This document shows, piece by piece, positions 24,884-42,414 of a stretch of 64,000 nucleotides of DNA (position 1 is the stretch's first letter; every line of letters begins with the position of its first letter). The DNA is taken from IMG/VR virus record IMGVR_UViG_3300037312_000757, one strand, 5' to 3'. This stretch comes from a virus. Lineage: Duplodnaviria > Heunggongvirae > Uroviricota > Caudoviricetes. The notes under the pieces are model-generated. The model was not told the DNA's origin. It ran no database searches and saw only the letters and a list, made by a program, of their open reading frames with translations. A program made the position numbers and the translations under genes.

Positions 24884-25001
24884 TGGAGTGGGCGCCGGGA
24901 TTCGAACCCGGGTCTCGTCCTTGGAATGGAAGAATGATTGCTGAACGTTTCCTTGTCAGGAAAGCTTTTCTTACGCGTGCTAACCACTACACCACGCCCA
25001 C
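24884..25001 (-). ncRNA. CCA-ending tRNA body with CAGCAA handle hairpin replacing the anticodon
   Basis: GTGGGCG/CGCCCAC-T-CCA; insert GCTTTCC-TGACAA-GGAAACGTTCAGCAA. Confidence 0.8.
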
Positions 25002-25019
25002 ATTTAAAACTAAAATCAC

Positions 25020-25094
25020 TGGGGTGAGTTGGAGAATCGAACTCCAGTCGCCTGGTTCACAGCCAAGCATTCTAACCACTGAACTAATCTCACC
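25020..25094 (-). tRNA. tRNA-His(GTG)
   Basis: Loop CTGTGAA. Confidence 0.9.
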
Positions 25095-25104
25095 ATTGAA
25101 ACCG

Positions 25105-25434
25105 TTACAGCTTGTCAGGATATTGCGCATCGATATGATCGATGTACGCAAGCGGACTCATACCTGGTTCAAGGTCATGAACCTTGCTGAACCCGTTTTC
25201 CTTCGTGACAAGTGCATCCTCAGGCTTGACTGCACCAGCATACTTTCTGAAACCAGGCTTGTTCATCAACTTGCCTGTTGCTGGGTCAATCGACCCCCAA
25301 TCCGTCCAGTCAGTTTTGCTCTGACCGTCAATCGGTTCTACGAAATACGACTTACCAGTACGTTGACTTGTTACAATGAAGCGTCCGGTTTCGTCTGTAT
25401 TTGTGAGAAACCGTTTGCGTAGGTCGGGGTCCAT
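25105..25434 (-). CDS. hypothetical protein
   Basis: AAGGA RBS. Confidence 0.7.
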   Translation of the reverse strand: MDPDLRKRFLTNTDETGRFIVTSQRTGKSYFVEPIDGQSKTDWTDWGSIDPATGKLMNKPGFRKYAGAVKPEDALVTKENGFSKVHDLEPGMSPLAYIDHIDAQYPDKL

Positions 25435-25461
25435 ATTGGAATCCTTCTTGTTAGAGTTAAT

Positions 25462-25536
25462 TGGTGCCCTCGAGGTGAATTGAACACCTGTATCCGACAT
25501 ACCAAGTCGGCGTAATTGCCACTATACGACAAGGGC
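25462..25536 (-). tRNA. tRNA-Thr(GGT)
   Basis: Loop TTGGTAT. Confidence 0.88.
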
Positions 25537-25541
25537 GTTTC

Positions 25542-25952
25542 TTATTTCCAAGGAGTTGGTGGAGGAACAACAGCATTTTCTGGGGCTGGAACTCCAACAC
25601 TACCAAAGTCTGCTGGTGAACAAATCTCCAGGTACTCCATGTCAGGCGAGTAATCATACAAATAATGCACTAGCCCGGGAACTTGATGCACAACATCGCC
25701 TGCTTCAACAAGCGTAATTGTGTCGCCATACATGAACTTGGCCCAGCCTTTGTTCATGATGACAATTTGAAAATCTAAAACATGCTGATGCCAACCAGTA
25801 CCTTCTGTAGGTGGTTTGTTGGCTTTCACCAAGTGCGCAATAACCTTACCGTCAGTTGCGTCCTTGATACCTAAATCCTTGTACAGGAAAAAATCACGCA
25901 GTCCGTCACCTTTCCATTCAGTGTCGGCTGGTTTTACATGCGAAAATTTCAT
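25542..25952 (-). CDS. cupin-domain protein
   Basis: GWHQH..FQIVIM.KGW..F and H-x-L cupin motifs. Confidence 0.8.
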   Translation of the reverse strand: MKFSHVKPADTEWKGDGLRDFFLYKDLGIKDATDGKVIAHLVKANKPPTEGTGWHQHVLDFQIVIMNKGWAKFMYGDTITLVEAGDVVHQVPGLVHYLYDYSPDMEYLEICSPADFGSVGVPAPENAVVPPPTPWK

Positions 25953-26012
25953 GAGTTCTAACCTCAAAAAGTTAAATTATCATTATAAACTTCTTGGTTA
26001 GAACTACAATAT

Positions 26013-26087
26013 TGGCGCACCCTACAGGAATCGAACCTGTATCCAACTCTTAGGAGGAGCTGATTCTATCCGTTGAACTAAGGGCGC
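26013..26087 (-). tRNA. tRNA-Arg(CCT)
   Basis: Loop CTCCTAA. Confidence 0.9.
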
Positions 26088-26093
26088 GGCAGC

Positions 26094-26444
26094 TCAAACA
26101 ATCACTTGTTCAAGTTTATTCCACACATCATCGTACAATACGTAAAGCTTGCTTCCATCTACTTCGATTGGAATCGCTTTACTACCAAGACCAGCCATCC
26201 CCGCAACCTCACCAGGTATGACCATACGCCCTGTCACTTTGATGATGGCCGGCGCACGAATGATCCTGATAACATTGTCGATCACGTTACCATCAGCATC
26301 TTTTTTACACGCTGGGTGGTAGATTCCCACTCGTACTTGAATATCTTTCTTGGTCTTCCAGACCGTACCTTTCTTCAGTAATGAACGAATACTACCGGTC
26401 ATGATAAACCTCAAAGGAAAATCATATGATACGGTAGCATTCAT
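26094..26444 (-). CDS. hypothetical protein (start uncertain)
   Basis: ORF between tRNAs. Confidence 0.6.
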   Translation of the reverse strand: MNATVSYDFPLRFIMTGSIRSLLKKGTVWKTKKDIQVRVGIYHPACKKDADGNVIDNVIRIIRAPAIIKVTGRMVIPGEVAGMAGLGSKAIPIEVDGSKLYVLYDDVWNKLEQVIV

Positions 26445-26461
26445 TTAATGTCAAACAAAAC

Positions 26462-27170: not shown

Positions 27171-27890
27171 TCAGTCAAATTTCATTTTTCTACCAACCTG
27201 CCATCCATTTTGCAGGTATGATTCTAAATCTGTTTTGGCAATCTTCTTTGCCGCTTTCTCTACGATTGAGAATATCCAACAAGACCCAAACTGAGAATTT
27301 TTCTCACCTTGCTGGTGTTTGTTTTTCTCAAACGTTTTTGTTCTTTTCAGCTTTGCTTCTGAAGTGTGTGCTTTCCTTGAAGCTTCAATTTGCCGCGTTC
27401 CGCCTTTAACAAACAGGGTGTGAGCAATTGTTCCGTCGGCATGTAAGTCAGTTAAACGCTTTGCTGACGCATCCAGATGCTCCTGGTAACGTTTGGTGTC
27501 TGATTTGAACTTCTGCATACGTGCAGGGCCACCGACCTTACCAGCGTCACTTGCGGTCTTTCTTTTAAGCTCTGGGTTTTCATTTATATGATCAAACCCA
27601 CCTTCCCCACCCACTTTTAAGTTCATACAAAGCGGATCAGTCAGTTGCTCTTCGCAAACTAACTCAGCTTCTCGAGCTTTCAAGGATTTGCGATCAGGTA
27701 AAAACTCTAGAATCTCACAAACATGATTATCTTTACCATGTTTGTTAATCGAATACCAAAGCCTTTTACCGGATCCCACGTAACCGTCATTAAGGTCATC
27801 TGTGGAATGCATACCGATGTAATACTTACCAGTTACTATACACGTTGTTTTGTATATGTAATGGTATTTTCTTCTTGCTGCTTGACGCAT
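27171..27890 (-). CDS. GIY-YIG homing endonuclease (Seg-like)
   Basis: YIYKTTCIVTGKYYIGMH..YVGSG, E..E, MNLKVGG; GCTAAATA upstream. Confidence 0.88.
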   Translation of the reverse strand: MRQAARRKYHYIYKTTCIVTGKYYIGMHSTDDLNDGYVGSGKRLWYSINKHGKDNHVCEILEFLPDRKSLKAREAELVCEEQLTDPLCMNLKVGGEGGFDHINENPELKRKTASDAGKVGGPARMQKFKSDTKRYQEHLDASAKRLTDLHADGTIAHTLFVKGGTRQIEASRKAHTSEAKLKRTKTFEKNKHQQGEKNSQFGSCWIFSIVEKAAKKIAKTDLESYLQNGWQVGRKMKFD

Positions 27891-28107: not shown

Positions 28108-28229
28108 CAGGATGGTATTTTTTACGTGCTCCCATTACACCACAGCGGGACCCTACCCCACTGCCGGGACTCGAACCCGGACCTTTCTTTTTTCCAGAAG
28201 AATAAAATAAATTTGCTGAAACCATCCAA
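28108..28229 (-). ncRNA. circularly permuted tRNA mimic with CAGCAA handle
   Basis: GGATGGTTTCAGCAA, then T arm, closed acceptor CAGTGGG/CCCGCTG, D arm, then ACCATCCTG. Confidence 0.85.
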
Positions 28230-28235
28230 GGGTTC

Positions 28236-28325
28236 TGGCAGTGGGAATGGGATTCGAACCCATGGGGCTTTTTAGGACCCGACGCCTTTCCAAGACGTTG
28301 CAATAGACCGCTCTGCCATCCCACT
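28236..28325 (-). tRNA. tRNA-Ser(GGA)
   Basis: Loop TTGGAAA, long variable arm, G73. Confidence 0.9.
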
Positions 28326-28360
28326 ATAAATTCAAATCACCAAGCCACGAAGAAAGGCGA

Positions 28361-28552
28361 TTACGATTGTGCTGCGAAACCTTCTTCACGTGCGAATGCC
28401 ACGACGCCACGGACTGCTTCGAGTGCGAACTCACCATGGAGTCGCTCCACGCGTTCTGCGGGGGTGGTCTCACGTCCAAGAGTCTCAGGGCGAGCCAGTA
28501 CGAGCGTATGCAACGGCAGTGCGGAAACGCGTGCAAATGTCAGCGTCGTCAT
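28361..28552 (-). CDS. hypothetical protein
   Basis: AGGAG RBS. Confidence 0.5.
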   Translation of the reverse strand: MTTLTFARVSALPLHTLVLARPETLGRETTPAERVERLHGEFALEAVRGVVAFAREEGFAAQS

Positions 28553-28595
28553 GATTGCTCTCCTTGAGAAAATGGTTAAAAGGTACTACGTTAAT

Positions 28596-28687
28596 TGGCG
28601 GTAGCGGAAGGATTTGAACCTTCGGGGCTTTTTAGGACCCGCTAGTTTTCGAGGCTAGTGCAATAAACCGGACTCTGCCACGCTACC
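28596..28687 (-). tRNA. tRNA-Ser(CGA)
   Basis: Loop CTCGAAA. Confidence 0.9.
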
Positions 28688-28694
28688 ATAAAAC

Positions 28695-28895
28695 TTACTT
28701 GGTGTCTTTCGATTGCTCTTCGCGCTGTGCGCTAATGAAAATGCAACCTTCAGCACCACATCCACAGACGATATGTCGTTCACGTACAATCTTGTCTGCG
28801 TCTTTGATTTCACCACGGTTACGAAGTGAATTGAAAACTTCCGTTGTATGGCGTGCTGCTGCCATATCTTTCTGCGATAAGCGTCTTCCGCTCAT
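28695..28895 (-). CDS. hypothetical protein (CGCG..GC)
   Basis: ORF between Ser tRNAs. Confidence 0.55.
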   Translation of the reverse strand: MSGRRLSQKDMAAARHTTEVFNSLRNRGEIKDADKIVRERHIVCGCGAEGCIFISAQREEQSKDTK

Positions 28896-28912
28896 ATCGT
28901 TCTCGTTATTAG

Positions 28913-29002
28913 TGGAGGAAGGTAAGGGATTCGAACCCTTGGGGCTTTTTAGGACCCGACTGTTTAGCAAACAGTTACAATAGACCGCTCTGCCAACCTT
29001 CC
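28913..29002 (-). tRNA. tRNA-Ser(GCT)
   Basis: Loop TTGCTAA. Confidence 0.9.
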
Positions 29003-29012
29003 ATTTAAAACT

Positions 29013-29108
29013 TGGTAGTCCCCCAGGGATTCGAACCCTGCCGTCGCAGCCCATCTAGCCGCTCTCCCGAGGATATAAATCTCAGCCGCTCAACCAGAGC
29101 TAAGGACC
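29013..29108 (-). tRNA. tRNA-Ile(TAT)-like with long variable arm
   Basis: GGTCCTT acceptor, A73, loop TTTATAT. Confidence 0.65.
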
Positions 29109-29119
29109 ACTGCAAAAAT

Positions 29120-29197
29120 TGGAGCTCCGAGCTAGATTCGAACTAGCGGTTTTACTGCTTTGCAGGCAGTTGCCTTGGACCTCTCGGCCATCGGAGC
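29120..29197 (-). tRNA. tRNA-Cys(GCA)
   Basis: Loop CTGCAAA. Confidence 0.9.
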
Positions 29198-29206
29198 GTT
29201 GAAAAC

Positions 29207-29282
29207 TGGAGCGGGTAACGGGGTTCGAACCCGTGACGTCTTGCTTGGCAAGCAAGTACTCTACCAACTGAGCTACACCCGC
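29207..29282 (-). tRNA. tRNA-Gly(GCC)
   Basis: Loop TTGCCAA, U73. Confidence 0.92.
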
Positions 29283-29293
29283 ATGGTGTATAA

Positions 29294-29356
29294 CTGGATG
29301 CACTTTAACGAGGTCAGATTAACGGTCTGGTGTTTGAAGTTGCTGTAGGCATCCAA
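29294..29356 (-). ncRNA. minimal CAGCAA-handle RNA
   Basis: GGATGCCTACAGCAA..GTGCATCCAG. Confidence 0.8.
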
Positions 29357-29362
29357 AACTGA

Positions 29363-29414
29363 CAGGAAGCACTTAGTCATGTAAGAAATGAGTAAGATTG
29401 CTGTAGGCTTCCTA
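29363..29414 (-). ncRNA. minimal CAGCAA-handle RNA
   Basis: GGAAGCCTACAGCAA..GTGCTTCCTG (compensatory change). Confidence 0.8.
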
Positions 29415-29426
29415 AAACTTGAATTC

Positions 29427-29681
29427 TTATAACAATCAGCACTAGGTTTGCAGTTTACCGCAGTGGAGGAATTAACTCACGGTGATCAAGCCGTTACTTC
29501 ATTCCATTCTCACGACCAAACTCAGGACCAAACAAGGAGGCGCGTCGGGGGCTCCCGAAACTCGTAAGCGGCTTAACTTCAGTGTGATACACTGTCCACA
29601 CATACCTACCCTTGCCCTCTGAGCGCTTTACCACTTGCACTGCAAAAACGGCCAGTTACTTCCTAACGCTGACTGCTATAA
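29427..29681 (-). ncRNA. ~255-nt structured RNA with 20-bp closing stem
   Basis: TTATAGCAGTCAGCGTTAGG pairs with CCTAGTGCTGATTGTTATAA; promoter TTGCAT-N16-TATCAT at 29687-29714. Confidence 0.7.
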
Positions 29682-29722
29682 AAACTATGATACACTTTGT
29701 TGCCATTTATGCAACAGAAAAC

Positions 29723-29814
29723 TGGCAGAGCTGCAAGGAATCGAACCCTATTGACTACCACCCACCGATTATTAAAGTCGCTGGTTTTGGAGACCAGTAG
29801 CGGGGAACAGCTCT
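29723..29814 (-). tRNA. tRNA-Trp(CCA) lacking D arm, expanded variable region
   Basis: AGAGCTG/CAGCTCT-G-CCA; loop CTCCAAA; only 10 nt between acceptor and anticodon stem. Confidence 0.75.
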
Positions 29815-29840
29815 GTTGAAAACTTGATACTACTAAAACT

Positions 29841-29917
29841 TGGTAGGGGCGGAGAGATTCGAACTCTCGACTTCCTGATTAAGAGTCAGGCACTCTGGCC
29901 AACTGAGTTACACCCCC
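29841..29917 (-). tRNA. tRNA-Lys(CTT)
   Basis: Loop CTCTTAA. Confidence 0.9.
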
Positions 29918-29924
29918 ATTGAAA

Positions 29925-30055
29925 TACCATTTGATGTGATCCCCATCACATCACCTGTTGAACACGATTCTGAAGCTACTTGCACATATAACGCTGAGTA
30001 GGCGTCACGTGCTTTTACTTACCGTGGGTGATCAGGTTAACCATATCAAATGGTA
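29925..30055 (-). ncRNA. ~130-nt stem-closed RNA
   Basis: TACCATTTGAT terminal inverted repeat. Confidence 0.55.
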
Positions 30056-30067
30056 CTTACGGAAACT

Positions 30068-30144
30068 TGGTGGGGGCACTGGGATTCGAACCCAAGCCTG
30101 ACGGATTAAAAGTCCGCTGTGCTAACCGCTAACACCATACCCCC
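30068..30144 (-). tRNA. tRNA-Lys(TTT)
   Basis: Loop CTTTTAA. Confidence 0.9.
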
Positions 30145-30150
30145 ATTGAC

Positions 30151-30225
30151 TGGTTGGGGCAGTGGGGATCGAACCCACGACCTTGAGATTAAGAGTCTCA
30201 TGCTCTACCGCTGAGCTATACCCCA
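30151..30225 (-). tRNA. tRNA-Lys(CTT)
   Basis: Loop CTCTTAA. Confidence 0.9.
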
Positions 30226-30245
30226 GTAAACTGGACTACAGAATC

Positions 30246-30380
30246 AGTAAGCTGGTACTTTCAATCAAGTACAGTGTACAGCTTACGACTCCCATGACTA
30301 CATTTTTGTCTGGGAGTCGTCGAACTTAATCTGCTACGACTCCCAGAAGTTTCGATGATTTTCGTTTCATCACAAACTCC
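30246..30380 (-). promoter_or_regulatory. leader-peptide RNA switch (MKRKSSKLLGVVAD, 30326-30370)
   Basis: AGGAG RBS; mutually exclusive 1:2, 2:3 and 3:4 helices. Confidence 0.65.
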
Positions 30381-30571
30381 TAAAGAGAAAATTAAATTAA
30401 AGTGTCCGAAAAATGTACACAAATTTCGGACAAAACCAACAACAAAGCCTGCATTTCCATCAGAGCACTTGCAAAAGCAAATGGTGATTCACGCAACTAG
30501 ACGTGATGGACTGGTTTAGCTCAAAGGCCAACCTAGGAGTATCAGGTCCCACCTATGGTTATTGGTAAACT

Positions 30572-30648
30572 TGGTTGCGCGAAGCAGGAGTCGAACCTGA
30601 TATCACCAGCTTATGAGACTGGTATGTAAACCGTTTCACTCTCGCGCG
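30572..30648 (-). tRNA. tRNA-Met(CAT), initiator-like C1:A72
   Basis: Loop CTCATAA. Confidence 0.8.
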
Positions 30649-30656
30649 AAACTTGT

Positions 30657-30737
30657 TGGTACCCCGCAAGAGATTCGAACTCTCACCCGAAGACCGGAAC
30701 CTAAATCCGGCGCGTCTACCAATTTCGCCAACGGGGC
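30657..30737 (-). tRNA. tRNA-Leu(TAG)
   Basis: Loop TTTAGGT. Confidence 0.9.
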
Positions 30738-30772
30738 ATCAATGCAGACCTACTAACGTCTGCACGAAATAC

Positions 30773-30850
30773 TGGTTGCGGAGAGATGGATTCGAACCAT
30801 CGACCTCCAGCTTATGAGGCTGGCGAGCTACCGGGCTGCTCTATCCCGCA
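30773..30850 (-). tRNA. tRNA-Met(CAT), fMet-like D arm
   Basis: AGAGCAGCCCGGTAGCTCG; loop CTCATAA. Confidence 0.85.
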
Positions 30851-30859
30851 ATTGAATTC

Positions 30860-30935
30860 TGGTTGTCAGTACTGGACTTGAACCAGTGACCTATCGCTTA
30901 TCAAGCGAGTGCTCTACCAACTGAGCTAACCGACA
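30860..30935 (-). tRNA. tRNA-Ile(GAT)
   Basis: Loop TTGATAA. Confidence 0.9.
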
Positions 30936-30939
30936 ATTG

Positions 30940-31168
30940 TCGCATCGCACTCGCTAAGGGCAACATTAAGCATCCACGCGCTAGAACAAGTTCCTGGCGT
31001 ATTCTCCGAATGTCATCCCTTACCAGCCATCATGCGCTGCAATGCATTTGCGCATAATGGACGAGATGCTACGTCCCTAACTGTAACCAAGTCTATTACC
31101 AACAAAACGTAGCAATACTGTTGGCACACATTGGCTCTGTTACAGCCCAGCAAGTTACCCTGCTAGTT
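30940..31168 (-). ncRNA. putative ~230-nt multi-hairpin RNA
   Basis: Promoter TTGCAA-N16-TACAAT (31175-31202), no ORF, several hairpins. Confidence 0.45.
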
Positions 31169-31210
31169 TGTTGCATTGTACAGCTTTTGCCATACTTTGC
31201 AAACACAACA

Positions 31211-31284
31211 TGGTTGTTCCAGAAAGAATCGAACTTTCGTTAATGGCTTATCAAGCCACCGTTCTACCATTGAACTATGGAACA
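31211..31284 (-). tRNA. tRNA-Ile(GAT)
   Basis: Loop TTGATAA. Confidence 0.88.
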
Positions 31285-31294
31285 ATTGAATTCT

Positions 31295-31369
31295 TGGTGG
31301 TTATAGATGGAGTCGAACCATCATTACCGGCTTATGAGACCAGTGTCCTAGCCATTGAACGATATAACC
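31295..31369 (-). tRNA. tRNA(CAT), elongator Met or Ile2
   Basis: Loop CTCATAA, G1:C72. Confidence 0.8.
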
Positions 31370-31373
31370 ATAA

Positions 31374-31429
31374 CTGGATGCACTTACGTTTTCACCGAAA
31401 GAAAGTATAAGATTGCTGTAGGCATCCAA
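31374..31429 (-). ncRNA. minimal CAGCAA-handle RNA
   Basis: GGATGCCTACAGCAA..GTGCATCCAG. Confidence 0.8.
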
Positions 31430-31449
31430 AACGGGTATTCGACATCAAA

Positions 31450-31557
31450 CTACCAAAAGTAGCGATACAACCAACCACTTTCTTGTTTATCAGTCATACA
31501 TTCGATTGGCGCTAATTCCCACACATCATTTTCAGTTCTGCGTCGAAATAACTGCAT
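31450..31557 (-). CDS. small protein (35 aa)
   Basis: AGGAG RBS; MQLFRRRTENDVWELAPIECMTDKQESGWLYRYFW. Confidence 0.5.
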   Translation of the reverse strand: MQLFRRRTENDVWELAPIECMTDKQESGWLYRYFW

Positions 31558-31575
31558 ACCAATCTCTCCTAAATG

Positions 31576-31650
31576 TGGCTCCAGAACCAGGGATCGAACC
31601 TGGGACCAACGCATTAACAGTGCGCTGCTCTACCGCTGAGCTATTCTGGA
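31576..31650 (-). tRNA. tRNA-Asn(GTT)
   Basis: Loop CTGTTAA. Confidence 0.92.
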
Positions 31651-31751
31651 ATTGAAACAGGACTGCATCGCGTACTCAGGCATTCGACACATTCAAATGC
31701 TTTCCTTTCCTTACTCTGCGGAATACCGCTAGAGATGATGCAGCAAAAACT

Positions 31752-31830
31752 TGGCTCCGCACACTGGGATCGAACCAGTCTAGCCACTGATTAACAGTCA
31801 GGTCCATGCACCTTGCTCGGATTCTGCGGA
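31752..31830 (-). tRNA. tRNA-Asn(GTT), atypical D arm
   Basis: Loop CTGTTAA. Confidence 0.82.
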
Positions 31831-31849
31831 ACTGTCATACAACAAAACT

Positions 31850-31925
31850 TGGTGCCTGGAGACGGAATCGAACCGCCGACACCCTGATCTTCAGTCAAGT
31901 GCTCTACCAACTGAGCTACCCAGGC
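31850..31925 (-). tRNA. tRNA-Phe(GAA), G37
   Basis: Loop CTGAAGA. Confidence 0.9.
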
Positions 31926-31996
31926 AAAGACCATAACGATGAGAACCTAACACACGCCTTAGCAGTGCGTACCCGCTCAACGTTACGATCAAAATT

Positions 31997-32071
31997 TGGC
32001 GATGCGTAGGGGATTCGAACCCCTGACTCCCGGCTAGACAGGCCAGTACTCTACCGCTGAGTTAACGCACC
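31997..32071 (-). tRNA. tRNA-Asp(GTC), U37
   Basis: Loop CTGTCTA. Confidence 0.88.
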
Positions 32072-32128
32072 ATGCGGGAGCAGCTTCTACTCCCCGCGCC
32101 CTGCTGTCGAAACAACAGGACTAAAACT

Positions 32129-32203
32129 TGGCGACCCTACGGAGAATCGAACTCCGTTCCCCAGATAGACAGTCTAGGATAATAACCAATATAAGATAGG
32201 GCC
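32129..32203 (-). tRNA. tRNA-Asp(GTC), U37
   Basis: Loop CTGTCTA. Confidence 0.85.
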
Positions 32204-32211
32204 GTGAAACT

Positions 32212-32299
32212 TGGTGAAGTGTGAAGGAATCGAACCTAATAACCAACCACCCCAGTATCATGGTAACGGGTTTACAATCCGCTCTGGGGAACACACTCC
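32212..32299 (-). tRNA. tRNA-Tyr(GTA) lacking D arm
   Basis: GGAGTGT/ACACTTC-A-CCA; loop TTGTAAA; GTTCCCCAGA replaces D arm. Confidence 0.75.
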
Positions 32300-32315
32300 A
32301 TTAAAACTTGTGCAA

Positions 32316-32468: not shown

Positions 32469-32479
32469 CTACTGAAACT

Positions 32480-32563: not shown

Positions 32564-32632
32564 ATTGCAACTTTACAACAAATGAAACACAAGTGCCTGC
32601 ATAGCTGTTATCCTCTTGTTTCATTTTACATC

Positions 32633-34756: not shown

Positions 34757-35386
34757 GTGGCCAAAGCCACGCATATCATGACTAGAGAAGAAAAAAGACT
34801 ACGAGCAGTAGCCAATGCTCAAAAGAAAGCCGACGAATTGGCCGCATACCTGGCTAACCCAAAGCTTTGTCGAAACTGTAAAGTTCAGATTGATTTCAAG
34901 AAGCGCAACACAAATGAATATTGCTCAAGTAGGTGCTCTTCTGCAGTCAACAGCTCATTGCGATCAACACGTATCAAGGCAAATAAGAAATCTTTCGAAT
35001 GCATTAATTGCGGAACCTTAAAAGTATATAAGAGTGAAAAACCTGGTAGGTATTGCTCAAATACCTGCCAACATCAATACCAAGAAAAGCAGCAGTTCGC
35101 ATTAGTTGAAGCTGGTAAAGCTAGTAACTCCGGTCAAGTCAAACGATATCTGTTAGCAAAATACGGCAATATTTGTATGGACTCTGAATGCTGCTGGAAT
35201 CAATCGAAGCGCCCAGTAGTAGTTGAGCTCGAACACCAGGATGGTAATTCAGATAACAACACTCTCGAAAATTGCATCTTGTTGTGCCCAAACTGCCACA
35301 GCTTGACGCCAACATACAAGAACAAAAACATGGGAAATGGTAGAGCGTATCGCAGAGCACGATACGCAGAAGGAAAGAGCTACTGA
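34757..35386 (+). CDS. HNH endonuclease with Zn-finger repeats
   Basis: LEHQDGNSDNNTLENCILLCPNCHS; inverted relative to neighbours. Confidence 0.88.
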   Translation: MAKATHIMTREEKRLRAVANAQKKADELAAYLANPKLCRNCKVQIDFKKRNTNEYCSSRCSSAVNSSLRSTRIKANKKSFECINCGTLKVYKSEKPGRYCSNTCQHQYQEKQQFALVEAGKASNSGQVKRYLLAKYGNICMDSECCWNQSKRPVVVELEHQDGNSDNNTLENCILLCPNCHSLTPTYKNKNMGNGRAYRRARYAEGKSY

Positions 35387-35433
35387 AAATGACGATGAGC
35401 AGCCTAGGCTGCTCATCTAAATTCGCAAATCAG

Positions 35434-35518
35434 TGGTGCCGGCTGTGAGACTCGAACTCACGATGGGTTTCCCCGCCGGATTACAAATCCGGTGCAATAG
35501 CCACTATGCGAAACCGGC
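35434..35518 (-). tRNA. tRNA-Thr(TGT) with long variable arm
   Basis: Loop TTTGTAA. Confidence 0.85.
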
Positions 35519-35631
35519 TTACTTGAATACAACAGTTTGTTCGACTGGATAACAACTACTGCCCAGCTCACCAACAAACTTACTACAAATCTATTTAGCA
35601 AATCAACAACGTTCGCTAACTTAGCTTCAAA

Positions 35632-35926
35632 CAGGATGGTTTGTGCATGCAGGTTTGAAAGTTATCGTTCAGTCTACATAGCAGGTTGCCTTATCTTCAC
35701 GTGCTCATGTAATTTTCATTACACAAGGGAAGCCTTATCAACAAGCGTACACCCACTGAACTATCACGTATTCTACGTGCCTATCTTGTTTGTTCTCGTC
35801 TACAAGCTGACGCCACATTCTTCGCTGCGGACGCTATCTAGCCTAGCATGTTTTACCAGTGCGCTTTCGCACACTGCACGCGTACTAGCACAATCATTTA
35901 GATTTGATATTGCTGTACCCATCCAA
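35632..35926 (-). ncRNA. ~295-nt CAGCAA-handle RNA
   Basis: GGATGGGTACAGCAA..AACCATCCTG enclosing several hairpins. Confidence 0.7.
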
Positions 35927-35963
35927 AACGCCAACTATCCAAAAGCCAGCGCTTCGAAACTAA

Positions 35964-36139
35964 CAGGATTGTGGTCTCCCTACACTCTTTACCGGGCCAG
36001 GATCTTCCCGGAGAGCTCGTTTCTACGAGAAATAGCTGCATCTCACACCGCAGGCACTCTTTCGAGTTCGACATCTAAGTCAGCTTACGGATTATGCAGC
36101 ACGCCATAGTTGTAAAGTATGGTTGCTGTAACAATCCTA
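35964..36139 (-). ncRNA. ~175-nt CAGCAA-handle RNA
   Basis: GGATTGTTACAGCAA..CACAATCCTG; starts just after promoter 36148-36175. Confidence 0.75.
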
Positions 36140-36147
36140 AGACTGCA

Positions 36148-36267
36148 ATTCTAACAAATCTACCAAACAAGTCAATAAATTTGTTGAAACTTTTCTACTT
36201 CGGCGCTGCTTTCGCTGCGTCGTCTACATCATATGCCAATTATGCATGCCTGCTGGCAACACGTCAA
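36148..36267 (-). promoter_or_regulatory. two sigma70 promoters
   Basis: TTGACT-N16-TAGAAT and TTGACG-N17-CATAAT. Confidence 0.65.
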
Positions 36268-36370
36268 CAATTAATTTACCACTTCTGCGTTATGCTGGCT
36301 GTTTAGCTGTACGTTTTCCCGATAAATATTAAGTCACGTGATTTTTCGCGCGACATAAGGAGAAAAACAT

Positions 36371-38185
36371 ATGGCTAATGTAAAAAACTTTGGCTTGGAA
36401 GGCGTAGCTTCCTCAGTTCAACTGGGTAAGGGCGGCGCTACTCTGCAAGGTTCAGCTTCAAGCGTGGCGGTGAAGACAGCTGATGGTTCAGCTCTCGTAA
36501 ACCTGCAGGCGGCTGATCCTGTTGCAGCACAAGACGTAGTCACAAAGGGTGTTTTCGACGCTCTGAACGGCGGTACTGTTCAATTGGGTAATCCACAAGA
36601 CGGCACATTGAACGATGGCGCTGTGCAGTTGACAACTTCAACAACAGTCACTACCGCAGTTGACAAGCTGAACGAGATCCTCGGTAAGCTGGTTCCAACC
36701 GCTCCAGCCAACTTCCCTGGCGGTCAAACACTGTCACTGTCAGGCGCAGGCACAGCTCTGCTGGCTAGCGGTTCAGTTGCTGACAACACAGGCGGTGGCA
36801 CGCTTCCAGTTACAGCAGGTAGTTCAGTCACACGTGTGACAGCAGCAACAGTTTCATCAACAACCATTGGTGACAACGGTTCAACAGGCTTCGTTGGTCC
36901 AGGTGACAGTGGCACAGTTCAAGCAGTGGTTAACGGCGCAGTCGTTGACTCACAGGCAATGAGTGGTGGTGTTGCTAAGAGCACAGGTGTTCTGCGTATC
37001 AGCAATGATACAGCGTACCCAGCAGCCACACCAGGTTTCTGGTACAGCTTCCGCGCAAGCATCAGCGGTGCTTCAGCCACACAAGGCTGGAACCGTATTG
37101 CACTGAATGACACAGCATCAGGTGCAACAGCAACAAACGATGTCTACTTCGTTCGTGACAACTTGACAGCTAACCCAGTAGTTTCATCGGGCACAGTTGT
37201 TCAAGGTACAGCTGGCACACTTGCTTATTCATCAAGCGTTCCACACTATAACACAGGCGCAACACTGACAGTTGGCTTCACAGCGACAAACATCGCAGGT
37301 GAAACATACTCATCAGGTAACATCCTGTCAGTAGCAGGCTCAAACGGTATTCTGTCAACTGTTGGTTATGCTGCCGGTTCCGGTGGTTTGTCAAGCCCAG
37401 TTGCTCGCCAAACACTAAGCTTCACAGCATCAGGTCTGAGCATTCCAGTTAGCGGCACTAACGTATTCGCATCAGGTCAGATCACAGCAACAGCAACAAA
37501 CCCAAATGGTTCAGGCAACGCAACATTCGGTCCAAACATCCTGGTGATGAATGGTACAGCTTCAAGCAAACTGTATGAAATGAATGTTCCAGTTACAGTC
37601 GCAGTGAACGGTGGCCCATCCGGCAACTCAACACGTGTGACAATGAGCAACGGTGACAATCCAAGCGACGACAAGTCTTCACTGACTACCGGCGACTGGA
37701 ATTCATCATCAGCTTTGCAAGTATGGGATGCAACAGTGGTTGCAGGTGTTCTGAAGAACGACTTGACAGACTACAGCACTTATCTGCCAGCAGGTCCAAA
37801 CCTGACAACACAAAACGCAACACAGTACGTGACATTCATGTTCCGCCGTACAGCCGTGTCCAAGTTTGACATTGCAGTAACAGGTACATATGCTGGTATG
37901 TGGATTAAGGCAGTTGGTCTGACCGAACAGTACACAGCTTCAGCAAATGGTTGGTACTCAATGTCAGCATCATATGCTGGTTCAGGTTTCCCAGGCGACC
38001 AGGCAGGTGCTAACGGTTCACTGGGTTGCGCATTGGGCGGTACAGCAAGTGGCAGTGGTTCATTCACAGCCACACTGGGCACACTGAGCTCAACAAACGC
38101 GACAAACAACATCATCATGGTACGTTTCAAGCTGACAGCAGGCCAGTCAATCACTGCCCTGAGCTTTGTACCAGCTACACACTAA
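36371..38185 (+). CDS. probable virion structural protein (604 aa, G/S/T-rich)
   Basis: Beta-rich composition, GATAAATA upstream, strong AGGAG RBS. Confidence 0.7.
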   Translation: MANVKNFGLEGVASSVQLGKGGATLQGSASSVAVKTADGSALVNLQAADPVAAQDVVTKGVFDALNGGTVQLGNPQDGTLNDGAVQLTTSTTVTTAVDKLNEILGKLVPTAPANFPGGQTLSLSGAGTALLASGSVADNTGGGTLPVTAGSSVTRVTAATVSSTTIGDNGSTGFVGPGDSGTVQAVVNGAVVDSQAMSGGVAKSTGVLRISNDTAYPAATPGFWYSFRASISGASATQGWNRIALNDTASGATATNDVYFVRDNLTANPVVSSGTVVQGTAGTLAYSSSVPHYNTGATLTVGFTATNIAGETYSSGNILSVAGSNGILSTVGYAAGSGGLSSPVARQTLSFTASGLSIPVSGTNVFASGQITATATNPNGSGNATFGPNILVMNGTASSKLYEMNVPVTVAVNGGPSGNSTRVTMSNGDNPSDDKSSLTTGDWNSSSALQVWDATVVAGVLKNDLTDYSTYLPAGPNLTTQNATQYVTFMFRRTAVSKFDIAVTGTYAGMWIKAVGLTEQYTASANGWYSMSASYAGSGFPGDQAGANGSLGCALGGTASGSGSFTATLGTLSSTNATNNIIMVRFKLTAGQSITALSFVPATH

Positions 38186-38199
38186 TCGGGAGATTTTAA

Positions 38200-39222
38200 A
38201 TGGCTATTTCTGACTCAAGCAAAGTCGACCTGATGTGGAAGAAGCTGGTTTACGGCGTTTCCAAGACAGATACATCATCAGCAAAGAGCGGTTCAAATGA
38301 AACAGTGTCATCACCACTGCCAGTTTACGCTAACAGCATTTGGGCACAAGCAGGCAGCATTCCAGCAACTCCACCAGCTTCAACAACATCAGTTGTTAAG
38401 CTGCTGACAGGTGCTAATCGTGTTGCAGCCACAGAAGATACAACAGCAACACTGAACGCAACATGGAAGACAGGCCAAACAAACTGGATTCCAGCGTCAT
38501 TCGGTGCAAACTACACCGTTAAGGTGTATGTTGGCGATCCACAGACAACAGGCGTTCAGATCTTCCCAGACACAAGCGGTACCGAATACACATTCGACTA
38601 CAATGCTGGTGTTCTGAACTTCCCAAATAGCTTGCCAGCTAACATTGCAAACGGCATCTACGTCGTCGGTTACCAATACATTGGTACACTGGGTCTGACA
38701 GGTACAGGTGCTGGTGCAAAGAGTGCAGTAGTCGCTGACATCACAGCTCGTAACGCAATCACAGGTCAAGCAGTTGGTGACATTGTGTTCGTTACCGATG
38801 CTTCAGGCATCCCTACTGACGCTAACCCAGGTCAGTATGCAGTGTACATGTGGACAGGTTCCGCTTGGACTGTGATTGCAACACAAGACTCAGGCGAAGC
38901 AGACGACAAGGTTAACTCAGTTGCTTTGACATCAGCTTCAACTGGCACAATTGCTCTGAGCACAGCTCGCGCTGGTGCTACAGTGACATCAGTTCAAATC
39001 AACGTAACAACAGCATTTGACGGTGCGTTCGCAATCTCAGTTGGTACATCAGCAAACAATGCATTGCTGGTTGCATCATCAGAGAACGACATGCAAACAG
39101 CTGGTGTTTACCAATTGAACATGTCCCTGATGGTTTCTCCAACAGCAGCAACAGCAGTCAATATCTACGTGACTGGAACAGCTACGGTTGGCGCAGCAAA
39201 CGTAACGATCACTTATGCTTGA
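38200..39222 (+). CDS. probable virion structural protein (340 aa)
   Basis: Co-transcribed; FDYNAGVLNF motif; similar composition. Confidence 0.7.
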   Translation: MAISDSSKVDLMWKKLVYGVSKTDTSSAKSGSNETVSSPLPVYANSIWAQAGSIPATPPASTTSVVKLLTGANRVAATEDTTATLNATWKTGQTNWIPASFGANYTVKVYVGDPQTTGVQIFPDTSGTEYTFDYNAGVLNFPNSLPANIANGIYVVGYQYIGTLGLTGTGAGAKSAVVADITARNAITGQAVGDIVFVTDASGIPTDANPGQYAVYMWTGSAWTVIATQDSGEADDKVNSVALTSASTGTIALSTARAGATVTSVQINVTTAFDGAFAISVGTSANNALLVASSENDMQTAGVYQLNMSLMVSPTAATAVNIYVTGTATVGAANVTITYA

Positions 39223-39239
39223 TAGGTAAGTGAGTTGGC

Positions 39240-39270
39240 AAAAGGCCCCACAATGTGGGGCCTTTTCTTT
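39240..39270. terminator. bidirectional terminator
   Basis: aaaaggcccca-caatg-tggggcctttt. Confidence 0.8.
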
Positions 39271-39284
39271 GGGCTTGTGAAAGC

Positions 39285-40073
39285 TTAGATCTTGATTTCG
39301 TGCGAGCCGAACGAGATGCGCGAAACCCAGTCGATGAACTTACGGGACACGAAGATCACCTTGTCCACCAGCACAGTCAGCACGCGCGAGAAGAGCGTCG
39401 ACAGAATCGTGATCGGCCATTCGAACACAGCAGAGGCCAGGATCGTCTTGCCTTGCAACGTGCGCGGCGGAAACAGTTCGGCCATCTTCTTCGCGATCAT
39501 GGCTTGCATGTCTTCGATCATCTCGTATTGACGCAGCGTCCACGTATCGAAACTAGTGTTCACCTTGTATGCGTAACCGAAGATCGTTTGCTTGTTGCTC
39601 GTTGCGAGGTCAAGCTGCAGAACCTGGCGTACGAAGTCGTCCGTGAGATCAGTGTCAGCGAATTGCACCTTGCGTTGATCGTTCATCTGTTTCAGAATGT
39701 TTGCACGGTAGTTGGCAAATTTTTCCGAGTCCATGAGATACGGCAAAACGAGGTTTCGATAACGTGTCTTCACGTGCATACAGTAAAGCACCCAGTTCGC
39801 GAACGAAACGACCACGCCGATCAGCAAGTAGACAACAATTGGCAACAGCACAGCATGCGCAATTGCACTTGGCTGTCGAATCAGATCGAAGACCGGCACA
39901 TGAGCGAACACGCCGATCGAAACGAACATCGCGACCATGGTGACGAACGAAACGCCGTAATGCTCGTTCGAATAAACCGCGATCGATACGACCAGTAACA
40001 CGAGCGCCGCCGCAACAGCAATCCACTCAATCAGAGTGAAAGCCACCGCTCCGGCCATCAGAGCTGCAAACAT
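39285..40073 (-). CDS. multi-pass membrane protein
   Basis: Several hydrophobic segments. Confidence 0.7.
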   Translation of the reverse strand: MFAALMAGAVAFTLIEWIAVAAALVLLVVSIAVYSNEHYGVSFVTMVAMFVSIGVFAHVPVFDLIRQPSAIAHAVLLPIVVYLLIGVVVSFANWVLYCMHVKTRYRNLVLPYLMDSEKFANYRANILKQMNDQRKVQFADTDLTDDFVRQVLQLDLATSNKQTIFGYAYKVNTSFDTWTLRQYEMIEDMQAMIAKKMAELFPPRTLQGKTILASAVFEWPITILSTLFSRVLTVLVDKVIFVSRKFIDWVSRISFGSHEIKI

Positions 40074-40299
40074 GTAAGGAACCTCTTGAAATTGTTATGA
40101 AAGGAAACAGCGCTGCCATTCTGCAATGGCACGCCATTTCATTCAAGCGTTCGTTACCATCTTAAAACTGAAGCGCCAAATGCCTAGACGCCCCACATGA
40201 ATCTAGTCCATGCAGGGCGTTTTCGGCAGGTAAACAACTTCAGGAGGTGAAGTGTTAAGTGTTAGATTACACCCGTCTCAGGATGCAGTCAAGCACTTT

Positions 40300-41130
40300 T
40301 TAGAACAGGATCAGCGAAGTGCCGCATTCACTGCAGAACTTGGCTGTCGCCTTGTTCGTTCTACCGCAAGTTTCGCACTTAGGCTTGGCCTTCACCGTCA
40401 CAGGTGCTTCGACCTTCTTCCCTTCTGGGCTTTCACCCAACAGCTTGAGCGCGATGACGTGTTTCGTGCTCTCTACAGGGAACCAAGCCGCAGTCTTAAA
40501 TGATTGCGAGCTGTGGGCGCCAGGTACGGTGATACCAACTTCATTTTGCACCGCAGCTTGAGCGGTGTATGCGGTGTTCACTGCATTTGTTGCCACTGAC
40601 GCAGACGCAACTGATGCGGTTGCGTTAAGAGTGGCGCCACGCAAGATACCCTTTGTAACGGGTTCTCCAGCAGTGGTTGAAGTGGTGAAGGTAACGTCGT
40701 TACCGTAGAAAGTACCATCATACAGACCTGGTGACTTGTAGACCCAGCCATTGTTGTTCCAAGTGTTGACTTGTGGGTAAAGATATTCGAACTGATATTC
40801 GACACGGATGAACCCGTCATCAACTTTGGAACCACGGTGATTTTCAATCTCGGCAGTGCGTTCGATGAACTTAAACTTGTTACCTTCCTTCAGGTTCCCG
40901 TTCTTGATGAAACGCTCGAACTCAATCTCGCTATGAGCTTCGATTACGAGTGCGGTGCCTTCTGTTGCATCAGTACCATCAACATGAACCTTGACCTGAA
41001 CACGACGTGAGTCCATGTTTTTGATCAGAATGCTGTAGTGGGAGCCAAATGGGATGTAGCAAGTGTCCTTTACTTCGCGCAGAACTTTGCCATTCGCCTT
41101 GACGGCGACGATGAGATTTTGATTGAACAT
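40300..41130 (-). CDS. hypothetical protein with C-terminal zinc ribbon
   Basis: CETCG..KFCSECGT. Confidence 0.75.
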   Translation of the reverse strand: MFNQNLIVAVKANGKVLREVKDTCYIPFGSHYSILIKNMDSRRVQVKVHVDGTDATEGTALVIEAHSEIEFERFIKNGNLKEGNKFKFIERTAEIENHRGSKVDDGFIRVEYQFEYLYPQVNTWNNNGWVYKSPGLYDGTFYGNDVTFTTSTTAGEPVTKGILRGATLNATASVASASVATNAVNTAYTAQAAVQNEVGITVPGAHSSQSFKTAAWFPVESTKHVIALKLLGESPEGKKVEAPVTVKAKPKCETCGRTNKATAKFCSECGTSLILF

Positions 41131-41134
41131 GGTG

Positions 41135-41262
41135 TGGTTTCCTTATTGTACGGCCTACGGAGTAAAGGCCTTATGTTTTAACTCCGTTTCAGGTGTTGAG
41201 TTGTTCGTCTCAACGGTTTCAACTATAGGCTATTGCCAACCTATAGTCAAAATCTATTTAGT
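41135..41262 (-). promoter_or_regulatory. structured 5' leader with putative pseudoknot
   Basis: ACTAAATA, two hairpins, GGAGT/ACTCC pairing into loop of GGCCT/AGGCC. Confidence 0.5.
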
Positions 41263-41263
41263 A

Positions 41264-41737
41264 TCAAGCATCGACAATCGATTCAAGCATGACATCGAGG
41301 CTTTCATACATCTTGACACCGAAGCGATTACACACGATGTCCACGTTACCCTTGCGCCAAAAGCCTTCTGGGCAGCATACGTGCAGTTTTTCTGGATAAC
41401 GAGCAGCGACGATACCGAGCTCGAGCAGCGTAATGGGTGATTTTGTACCTGGTGCAAAGTACATGATGACAATGTCCGCTTTATCGATGTGATCGAGCTC
41501 CCAGTTCACCTGTGTGTTGAAGTTGGGCTCGTCAATCTCTTGACGCCATGATGAGTCCCAGTCCGAACGACGTGGATTGTAGATTACACTGGCGAAACGG
41601 TCGAGCTTGCCGATGGCATATGTTTGCCAGTCTTCGGACGCACCCATTTCGATCGTCCCCGCCAGAAACACGGATGGCGCTTCCAAGAGCGCTGGCTTGT
41701 TGAAAAAGCACGGTGGGTATTTTACGATTGCAGTCAT
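41264..41737 (-). CDS. nucleoside 2-deoxyribosyltransferase-like protein
   Basis: VFLAGTIEMG..DWQ, NPRR, QVNWEL, SPITLLELG. Confidence 0.8.
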   Translation of the reverse strand: MTAIVKYPPCFFNKPALLEAPSVFLAGTIEMGASEDWQTYAIGKLDRFASVIYNPRRSDWDSSWRQEIDEPNFNTQVNWELDHIDKADIVIMYFAPGTKSPITLLELGIVAARYPEKLHVCCPEGFWRKGNVDIVCNRFGVKMYESLDVMLESIVDA

Positions 41738-41840
41738 TTTATTTTTCTTGTTAGCAGACTGTGGAACGACTAAGGGCTCCCGTAAGGGAGCCCGTCGCCG
41801 ATGGTAACAACCTACAGGAGGAACTACATGGTAAAACCAA

Positions 41841-41973
41841 CAGGATCCCTTTACATGTCTAGCGCGTATACCAATTTCGCCACAATCCACTTTTAAGGGT
41901 GGATTAGAAGGGTTCGAACCTTCACGTCTTTCGACACCAGATTTCCGATAGTTTGTTTGCTGTACGGATCCTA
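41841..41973 (-). ncRNA. circularly permuted Leu-type tRNA mimic with CAGCAA handle
   Basis: GGATCCGTACAGCAA, variable arm + T arm, closed acceptor, GGCGAAATTGGTATACGC D arm, GGGATCCTG. Confidence 0.85.
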
Positions 41974-42014
41974 AAATCTACCACCAGTAATACTTCGCTG
42001 GTGGGAAAAACTAA

Positions 42015-42071
42015 CTGGATGCACACTTGGTTTCTTAGCAAAAGAAGAGTGTGGTTGCTGTAGGCATCCAA
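42015..42071 (-). ncRNA. minimal CAGCAA-handle RNA
   Basis: GGATGCCTACAGCAA..GTGCATCCAG. Confidence 0.8.
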
Positions 42072-42129
42072 AACCTTAAATTCTTCCAGTGTTCGTGTTT
42101 AACACAAAGAGAACACTGGCAACCTTTGC

Positions 42130-42225
42130 GTTAAGTCCCAGCTCGTTGAGCGCTGAAACACTAGGCCTTTTAACTCTCACTCGACACTAGCTTCTAACAT
42201 CTAGTGCAGACCTAACTACCTTAAC
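42130..42225 (-). ncRNA. ~95-nt stem-closed RNA
   Basis: GTTAAG/CTTAAC and TAGGTCT/AGGCCTA; promoter TTGACG-N17-TAGAAT at 42229-42257. Confidence 0.5.
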
Positions 42226-42281
42226 TCTATTCTACTGCTATGGCAACCTAACGTCAAGCATTTTGTTGCCACTTCATTTAA

Positions 42282-42414
42282 CAGGATGGGACTACTTTAA
42301 GGCCGCTGCTCTGCCAACTGAGCTAACCATGCTTACCAATTTCTTAGTAATCATAGTGCAGGACTCGAACCTGCGACCCGCGGCTTGGATTTAGTGATTG
42401 CTGAATCCATCCTA
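42282..42414 (-). ncRNA. circularly permuted Lys-type tRNA mimic with CAGCAA handle
   Basis: GGATGGATTCAGCAA, GCCGC + T arm, acceptor closed by GAAA hairpin, D arm + GCGGC, CCCATCCTG. Confidence 0.85.

Follow-up and report, generated by a model that had tools for sequence, protein, structure and literature searches.

Described small RNA systems and the CAGCAA handle

In bacteria, Ro60 (Rsr, a TROVE protein) is accompanied by YrlA-type Y RNAs (Chen et al. 2014, PMC4201824). Thermus phage phiLo likewise has a Ro60 with the Y-like RNAs Yrl1 and Yrl2, and a complex of Ro60, Y-like RNAs and host PNPase slows PNPase (PMC12135203). The Class I RNAs, described as unique to Dictyostelia, share a 6-bp covarying stem, a conserved first G, an unpaired 11-nt motif and a 3′ CUGU (Kjellin et al. 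2021, PMC7919456). In Bas63, a Felix O1-type E. coli phage, loss of the Ro60-like protein gp130 by deletion renders the phage sensitive to the Ppl defence system, which is the sole functional result available for the DUF2828 protein family; the authors of this PhageMaP preprint guess that some annotated Bas63 tRNAs may be Y RNAs (bioRxiv 10.1101/2024.10.10.617714). Here we describe ten loci in a 64,000-nt stretch of tailed phage DNA (Caudoviricetes; IMG/VR record IMGVR_UViG_3300037312_000757) that share a helix with an unpaired CAGCAA motif, which we call the handle, combined with exchangeable cargo. We consider that these loci are probably small, stem-closed, Y-RNA-like non-coding RNA genes whose products would dock on a divergent Ro60-like protein of the same phage, with DUF2828 and DUF7788 domains.

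A family of handle RNAs in a phage tRNA array

The window, by which we mean the whole 64,000-nt stretch analysed, is the minus strand of positions 360517–424516 in a viral record that is complete at 523,836 bp and has direct terminal repeats; coordinates below refer to the window unless given as genome positions. Its minus strand holds 52 tRNA genes (ARAGORN), mostly between 21983 and 35518. The minus-strand CAGCAA contexts and the folds of the ten loci reveal a shared design, (U)UUU(A/G)-GGAWSS-NUW-CAGCAA, cargo, SSWUCC-(A/U)GUUA. The handle thus consists of a 6–7 bp helix that joins the 5′ and 3′ ends, free in sequence but kept complementary; an unpaired N-U-W-C-A-G-C-A-A on the 5′ side that faces a short A-rich stretch; and a 3′ (A/U)GUU tail. 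Both strands of the genome were scanned for full handles, defined as GGAWSS, three bases, CAGCAA, then the perfect 6-nt reverse complement plus (A/T)GT. Exactly nine were found, all within 28108–42412 and all on the tRNA strand, where chance would provide approximately 0.02–0.14 partners per site.

Three of the nine enclose a permuted tRNA-like cargo. At 42282–42412 (minus strand, as for all ten loci; stem GGATGG/CCATCC), the order is T arm, hairpin-closed acceptor stem and D arm; the same order is seen at 41841–41971 (stem GGATCC/GGATCC), with T arm GAAGG-TTCGAAC-CCTTC and a closed acceptor hairpin, while the third copy lies at 28108–28227 (stem GGATGG/CCATCC). Four are minimal. The copy at 42015–42069 (stem GGATGC/GCATCC) carries a single hairpin with a 7-nt loop, as does that at 31374–31427, which abuts the 5′ end of tRNA-Met (31295–31369). 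The copy at 29363–29412 (stem GGAAGC/GCTTCC) has the hairpin loop UUCUUAC, and that at 29294–29354 stands directly downstream of it and approximately 8 nt upstream of tRNA-Gly. The remaining two are larger, with a 150-nt multi-hairpin cargo at 35964–36137 (stem GGATTG/CAATCC; fold z-score −2.3) and a 270-nt structured cargo at 35632–35924 (stem GGATGG/CCATCC; fold z-score −4.8), neither of which has an Rfam match.

The tenth locus, 24887–25001, is a tRNA-like gene with normal acceptor, D and T arms and an encoded CCA (46.1 bits against the Rfam tRNA model), with the handle inside it. Here, 54 nt stand in for the anticodon arm, and the handle forms a loop-closed hairpin at 24938–24963. The insert, UUUCC-UG-ACAA-GGAAA-CGUU-CAGCAA, presents the handle in reversed order: a loop closes it on the outside, and on the inside it opens into the body of the tRNA. 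The loop-closed form recurs in several other phage contigs (12 matches, versus 1 in reversed-sequence controls). A sequence-only reading of this DNA had proposed ten minus-strand loci. All ten were recovered in place, with the coordinates of the nine full handles agreeing within 1–2 bases; the stems that it listed (GGATGC, GGAAGC, GGATGG, GGATCC and GGATTG) are all present among those nine, and its division of the cargos into four short hairpins, three permuted tRNA bodies, two large domains and one CCA tRNA body was sound.

The handle helix covaries across viral contigs

An exact-pattern scan of IMG/VR with the 5′ half of the handle only (TTTNGGATNNNTACAGCAA) returned at least 119 stretches. 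Among the matches listed, 122 motif sites could be paired with a perfect 6-nt complement and an adjoining WG no more than 700 nt away (chance approximately 0.02 per site), and the handle is present in more than 100 viral contigs. The partnerless sites mostly had TTTG or TTTT leaders and resembled chance matches. True elements lie inside arrays of 10–38 tRNA genes, on the tRNA strand and often 3–10 nt from a tRNA end. Two related elements gave no match by blastn against cultured phages.

Since the detection rule requires six complementary bases, the perfect pairing seen in those six columns partly reflects the rule itself. Covariation was checked in two ways that escape this bias. The first is a stem-agnostic scan of 80 loci fetched by way of the DUF2828 protein. 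On the gene strand, 144 of 725 CAGCAA sites had a partner at the correct register, as against 14–17 when the register was offset by 7 or 14 nt. On the other strand, 11 of 534 sites had one. The scan recovered 52 different stems, including GGUUCC, GGAUAG, GGCUAG and GAAUGU. The second check concerns a seventh pair just outside the helix, and outside the detection rule, in an alignment of 48 sequences, some of them from cultured phages that infect four host genera. This position is paired in 48 of 48 aligned elements (A-U in 42 and U-A in 6, with 6 double changes), and the pair is kept in seven of the nine window copies. The stem covariation first suggested from the window alone is thus upheld by the 52 stems and by the seventh pair.

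These data bear on whether the repeats are features of the DNA itself, either the terminal inverted repeats that bound a miniature mobile element or sites of recombination by which fragments of tRNA genes are shuffled. Short inverted repeats do flank variable inserts, and homing-endonuclease-like open reading frames (ORFs) are found in the tRNA arrays (weak GIY-YIG match). However, the arms differ between copies and remain complementary within each copy, which is the signature of a transcribed helix and not of a transposase site. In the 80 DUF2828 loci of viral contigs, all 63 strict handles lay on the gene strand, with none on the other strand or in reversed controls, a strict strand bias; the conserved single-stranded motif is asymmetric, on one arm only; and there are no target-site duplications and no identical copies. 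We regard a DNA-level origin as extremely improbable.

Cargos are mostly parts of tRNA

Cargo types were sorted over 437 distinct collected elements. Among the short cargos, 116 of 183 contained a hairpin of 4 bp or more with a 7-nt loop, versus 43 in shuffled controls. Their loops favour C32 (59), U33 (76), A37 (87) and A38 (76), and the resulting consensus, C32-U33-NNN-A37-A38, is the signature of an anticodon loop; CUUGUAA, CUUUUAA and CUUCUAA are the commonest. Acceptor-less cloverleaf cargos consist of D arm, anticodon arm and T arm, with the handle replacing the acceptor stem. Anticodon-less cargos consist of T arm, closed acceptor stem and D arm, with the handle replacing the anticodon arm, which is the YrlA topology. 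Larger conserved classes of approximately 170 nt and approximately 235 nt were also present among the collected elements. By BLAST against approximately 115 elements of other contigs, the window cargos showed handle-level or short tRNA-arm similarity only.

The phage encodes a Ro60-shaped DUF2828 protein

The sequence-only reading had noted that no Ro gene lies in the window. This is correct, and the whole 523,836-bp genome is likewise without a match to TROVE (PF05731); RtcB (PF01139) is not matched in it either, so that the co-occurrence with TROVE and RtcB genes which had been suggested as a test is not seen in this genome. On the other hand, PF11443 matches one 467-aa ORF (genome 281171–282574). 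The Pfam matches of this protein are DUF7788 (152.6 bits), DUF2828 (98.8 bits) and a weak VWA_2, with no match to TROVE, and its family counts over 6,600 relatives in a protein collection.

The protein was modelled with AlphaFold on the basis of 27 sequences (predicted local distance difference test 79, predicted template modelling score 0.74). When the model was compared with the Protein Data Bank (PDB) using Foldseek, the 13 best matches were all Ro60/TROVE proteins, from phiLo, Xenopus, Deinococcus and human, with template modelling scores of 0.40–0.60 over approximately 500 aligned columns (full length) and a probability of 1.00. A search of PDB chains with the sequence of the protein yielded no match. 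The fold search of Swiss-Prot returned the Ro60 proteins of Deinococcus, mouse, human, Xenopus and C. elegans, along with telomerase p80; no dictyostelid DUF2828 protein was among these results, which is uninformative either way. One ESM Atlas cluster mixes TROVE, DUF7788 and DUF2828 annotations. In the predicted structure, the 467-aa protein has the ring of helical repeats closed by a vWA domain. The match to DUF2828 and DUF7788, together with the Ro60/TROVE fold matches, reveals that the phage encodes a divergent Ro60-shaped protein.

Handle RNAs are linked to DUF2828 genes

DUF2828 scored over the cut-off in 23 of 25 handle-bearing viral records and in none of 25 chance-motif records (Fisher p = 5.6e-12). 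The handle-bearing records are mostly fragments, and the two that lack DUF2828 are 71% and 11% complete. Co-occurrence with DUF2828-like genes had also been suggested as a test; it is seen across these records, and RNAs and protein share a genome here. At the level of individual loci, the stem-agnostic rule placed 105 of the 144 elements within 500 nt of the DUF2828 gene (59 within 100 nt), in 62 of the 80 loci. Those within 100 nt are on the same strand as the gene, 37 upstream and 22 downstream.

By tblastn, the protein is found in at least 710 cultured-phage records. Phages with DUF2828 include Felix O1-type coliphages and phages of Listeria, Staphylococcus, Campylobacter, Vibrio and mycobacteria, and thousands of metagenomic sequences also carry it. 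In the Felix O1-like phage HY02, four handle RNAs lie just downstream of the DUF2828+DUF7788 gene, which heads an unannotated RNA/tRNA stretch, while in mycobacteriophage LilDestine the gene of the ‘Ro-like RNA binding protein’ is closely followed by three. Three are located just upstream of the DUF2828 gene in Listeria phage LMTA-34, and three upstream of it in Bacillus phage Tsamsa. Cronobacter phage S13 has one downstream of the gene, beside two over-long ‘tRNAs’. The proteins of all five phages match DUF2828+DUF7788, not TROVE. Stems in the cultured phages vary by lineage (GACCNN, GGACNC, AGACAC), and CAGCAA and the 3′ WG are constant.

Two side observations concern these loci. Annotated ‘tRNAs’ of 113–122 nt lie by or near the DUF2828 gene in S13 (locus L214: 5890–6132) and in Aeromonas phage Aeh1 (locus L211: 8187–8308), and may be mis-annotated handle-bearing tRNA mimics. 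In LMTA-34, an RtcB-type ‘tRNA-splicing ligase’ gene (6841–8052 of locus L213) is found 1.3 kb downstream of the DUF2828 gene; together with the handle RNAs, this echoes the bacterial rsr-yrlBA-rtcBA arrangement.

The position of so many elements within 100 nt upstream or downstream of the gene, on its own strand, would suit a cis-acting operator through which DUF2828 regulates its own mRNA, the dispersed copies in tRNA arrays being by-products. This view accounts poorly for a genome with ten copies and none near the gene, for cargos that are elaborate and conserved tRNA mimics, and for loci in which several copies form arrays apart from the coding sequence, and we consider it very unlikely. 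Ten copies with five cargo types, approximately 100 kb from the protein gene, argue instead for RNAs that act in trans.

Several observations weigh against docking on the DUF2828 protein. The handle nearest to the gene in this genome (genome 382105) is approximately 99.5 kb away, so that adjacency, the strongest argument elsewhere, does not apply here. The 25 control records come from other kinds of phage that are not tRNA-rich, so shared ancestry of tRNA-rich phages could explain part of the co-occurrence. Class I RNA is reported to bind the RNA-recognition motif (RRM) protein Rnp1A/CIBP and not a Ro-like protein (PMC7919456). The four short loops of the window (UUUGCUA, UUUCGGU, UUCUUAC and CCGUUAA) fit the anticodon pattern only loosely, and its two large cargos have no recognisable relatives, either by BLAST against the approximately 115 elements or in four related huge-phage genomes.

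The separation of RNAs and gene in this genome and the binding of Class I RNA to Rnp1A would both fit a handle that serves in processing or stabilisation and is recognised by the tRNA-maturation enzymes of the host or by another RNA-binding (e.g. RRM) protein, with DUF2828 travelling along in tRNA-rich lineages or operons. The elements also abut tRNA genes, so their ends must come from tRNA processing. Nonetheless, we judge this explanation unlikely. Adjacency to DUF2828 recurs in phages of Proteobacteria, Actinobacteria and Firmicutes with differing stems and neighbouring genes; where an element lies within 500 nt, as in most of the 80 loci, its strand is invariably that of the gene; and the linked protein is folded like a ring known to bind RNA stems. 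The earlier proposal, a Y-RNA-like handle by which a ring protein tethers different RNA modules, is therefore supported by the Ro60-like fold and the genomic linkage, from which we infer the binding itself.

Relationship to YrlA, Class I and other RNAs

At gathering thresholds, the only Rfam matches in the window are tRNAs. When matches with E up to 10 were considered, the only other signals were sub-threshold ones to YrlA and Dicty_Class_I_RNA. It had been anticipated that a direct match to a characterised Rfam family would lower the novelty of the elements; none reached its gathering threshold.

For YrlA (RF02553, gathering score 69 bits), the best window score is 33.9 bits at 42304–42382, covering model positions 23–85 only. 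The tRNA-cargo elements of related phage contigs score 30–49 bits, none at threshold, and a LilDestine element aligned to the full model scores 21.7 bits only. The highest score seen, 48.9 bits over the whole RF02553 model, belongs to a handle RNA whose motif is the variant CAGCAU and whose cargo is YrlA-like (locus L032: 3640–3765, plus strand).

The YrlA/Ro60 system resembles that of the window in pairing a ring-shaped protein of HEAT repeats and a vWA domain with small RNAs whose ends meet in a helix that has an internal loop. The YrlA module is a tRNA minus its anticodon arm in permuted order, as in 42282–42412, 41841–41971 and 28108–28227, and this arrangement is absent from the other seven loci. 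The RNA genes of Ro60/YrlA usually adjoin the protein gene, as do most handle RNAs elsewhere. The differences are equally clear. The YrlA stem (cggCga / AUGCu ... aAaAcUuG / ucGccg) contrasts with that of the handle (GGAUNN / NUWCAGCAA ... AAAR / NNAUCC), in line with the earlier remark that the CAGCAA motif departs from the Ro-binding consensus. The linked protein matches DUF2828/DUF7788 rather than TROVE, with no TROVE Ro60 gene alongside; the range of cargos is far wider, extending to bare anticodon-loop mimics, acceptor-less cloverleaves and 150–270-nt domains; and up to ten copies are dispersed in a tRNA array. The motif used for phiLo is CGAA, whereas that of the handle is NUWCAGCAA with a 3′ UGUU.

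This comparison also bears on the idea that the RNAs are ordinary Y RNAs of the YrlA type, carried by the phage as partners of a host TROVE-type Ro60 (Rsr). The three copies with a YrlA-type permuted tRNA module and the sub-threshold RF02553 scores of related phage elements would be expected if this were so. Since no element attains the RF02553 gathering score, the stem and loop are unlike the YrlA consensus (cggCga-AUGCu as opposed to GGAUNN-NUWCAGCAA) and the co-occurring protein is DUF2828, not TROVE, we give a host Rsr partner very little credence.

The Class I RNAs of Dictyostelium strikingly resemble the handle RNAs in form. Dicty_Class_I_RNA (RF01414, gathering score 41.5 bits) scores 18.8 bits over the whole model at 29363–29412, and nine short elements of related phage contigs score 24–31 bits, none at threshold; the model aligns end to end with phage elements at 18.8–30.8 bits. 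Its consensus, GaUcuC-CUUACAGCAA...GagAuC-UG, is very close to the phage handle, and the Class I motif ends in ACAGCAA (CCUUACAGCAA), as does that of the handle, although the phage motif has 10 nt and the Class I motif 11 nt. Class I RNAs and short handle RNAs have in common a 6-bp covarying stem that joins the ends and begins with a conserved G, an unpaired motif beside its 5′ strand, a 3′ CUGU, a variable remainder and a length of approximately 60 nt. On these sequence comparisons, the shape of the handle has a precedent in the Class I RNAs, a close parallel that stays below threshold. They differ in that the genes of Class I RNAs are eukaryotic and have a DUSE promoter to themselves approximately 60 nt upstream, whereas handle RNAs are phage genes in tRNA operons; and no tRNA-like cargo has been reported for Class I RNAs, unlike handle RNAs.

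Phage parallels are fewer. HY02, a Felix O1-type relative of Bas63, has the same protein family as gp130, judged by domain content. The Bas63 preprint names no RNA, motif or family, whereas in the present genome the RNAs are defined and lie 100 kb from the gene. The rnaC and rnaD genes of phage T4 (species 1 and 2) specify small stable RNAs of unassigned function that are co-transcribed with phage tRNAs, one of which ends in a tRNA-like T arm and acceptor strand; their sequences contain no CAGCAA handle and no closing helix of the handle type.

Other identities for the handle were considered and rejected. A K-turn was ruled out by inspection, as there are no tandem G-A pairs beside the helix, as was an archaeal bulge-helix-bulge splice site, for which the loop geometry is wrong. 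No self-cleaving ribozyme was matched in Rfam at E up to 10. Nor is NU-WCA-GC an anticodon loop, since the motif is an internal loop that is kept whatever the cargo.

A literature search brought to light no publication in which this RNA family is named or DUF2828 is connected with RNA, and the handle falls within no Rfam family. As far as can be told, the family of CAGCAA-handle RNAs is unpublished, although its pairing with a Ro60-shaped protein is repeated across hundreds of phages.

Predicted expression and end formation

A sigma-70-like promoter (TTGACT, 16 nt, TG, TAGAAT; 10 of 12 consensus positions matched, with TG) is predicted by consensus match at 36148–36175 on the minus strand, and would start transcription at the 5′ end of the 35964–36137 RNA. 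From this site the order is the 35964–36137 RNA, the next handle RNA, tRNA-Thr (35434–35518) and then a terminator-like hairpin at 35394–35417 (minus strand), again a consensus match. The promoter-like site, two handle RNAs, tRNA-Thr and terminator-like hairpin suggest a self-contained RNA operon. Judging by position, the handle RNAs would be transcribed together with tRNA genes; one pair probably has a promoter to itself. Processing of the tRNAs would then fix the ends of the handle RNAs. The 31374–31427 element, for example, runs into the 5′ end of tRNA-Met, so that RNase P cleavage of the tRNA would leave the element with a 3′ end in ...CCAGUUAU. The source DNA is present in two rhizosphere metagenome runs, and no RNA run was among the public sequencing runs listed.

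Possible roles of the handle and its cargo

In the model that we favour, the handle would dock each RNA on the Ro60-shaped ring of the 467-aa protein, much as Y RNAs bind by their stem to the outer face of the Ro60 ring. The cargo, mostly a tRNA part, would then face outward, offering host or phage proteins a surface that resembles tRNA. One role for the cargo could be that of a decoy, drawing off defence nucleases that cut tRNA; another could be that of an adaptor, recruiting tRNA-binding enzymes or an exonuclease to the ring. By analogy with the Ro60 complex of phiLo, a second output might be the slowing of PNPase.

A broader and much more speculative reading, which we hold only tentatively and think rather unlikely, is that the handle is the general recognition element for Ro60-like proteins of a DUF2828 branch, whether viral, bacterial or eukaryotic. 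The Class I RNAs of Dictyostelium would then be the Y RNAs of a eukaryotic DUF2828 protein, and the tRNA-part cargos of the phage particle would be decoys or adaptors against tRNA-directed immunity, in other words a programmable, modular counter-defence ribonucleoprotein.

The window adds a dispersed ten-copy case, an internally controlled co-occurrence count, the seventh covarying pair and the anticodon-loop statistics. A defined RNA handle offers the unstudied DUF2828 family a testable partner, accounts for many peculiar annotations of ‘tRNA-like’ genes or over-long tRNAs in phage arrays, and connects these RNAs to the counter-defence phenotype seen for Bas63 gp130 against Ppl. It also suggests where to seek the function and partner of the Class I RNAs, open for two decades. 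With one handle and swappable cargo, the design may serve as a scaffold for RNA display.

Other features of the window and genome

Pfam searches with ten neighbouring ORFs returned nothing informative, and megablast of window positions 33000–41000 against cultured phages gave no match. A tRNA-like gene at 24358–24475 (minus strand, 42.4 bits) has a 52-nt replacement of its anticodon loop, without a CAGCAA handle. Inside the tRNA array, a 239-aa ORF at 27171–27890 (minus strand) has a weak SegE-type GIY-YIG match (E = 0.0099) and may encode a homing endonuclease, as in the T4 tRNA cluster. The ORF-poor stretch at 41985–43420 (minus strand), around the three upstream handle RNAs, includes more hairpin-rich sequence and a promoter-like site at 42257–42229, and may encode further small RNAs. 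Elsewhere, a phage contig with handle RNAs (locus L090: 1810–2201) also encodes a transfer-messenger RNA with the tag ANDEKFALAA. Outside the window, the genome carries genes for a T4 Rnl1-like RNA ligase (genome 54078–54683), an Rnl2-like ligase (genome 447080–447535) and an enzyme of the CCA-adding/poly(A)-polymerase family (genome 243715–244083), which from their sequences would make up a tRNA repair and maturation kit. That the phage encodes RNA ligases and a CCA-adding-type enzyme suggests that tRNA maintenance matters to it.

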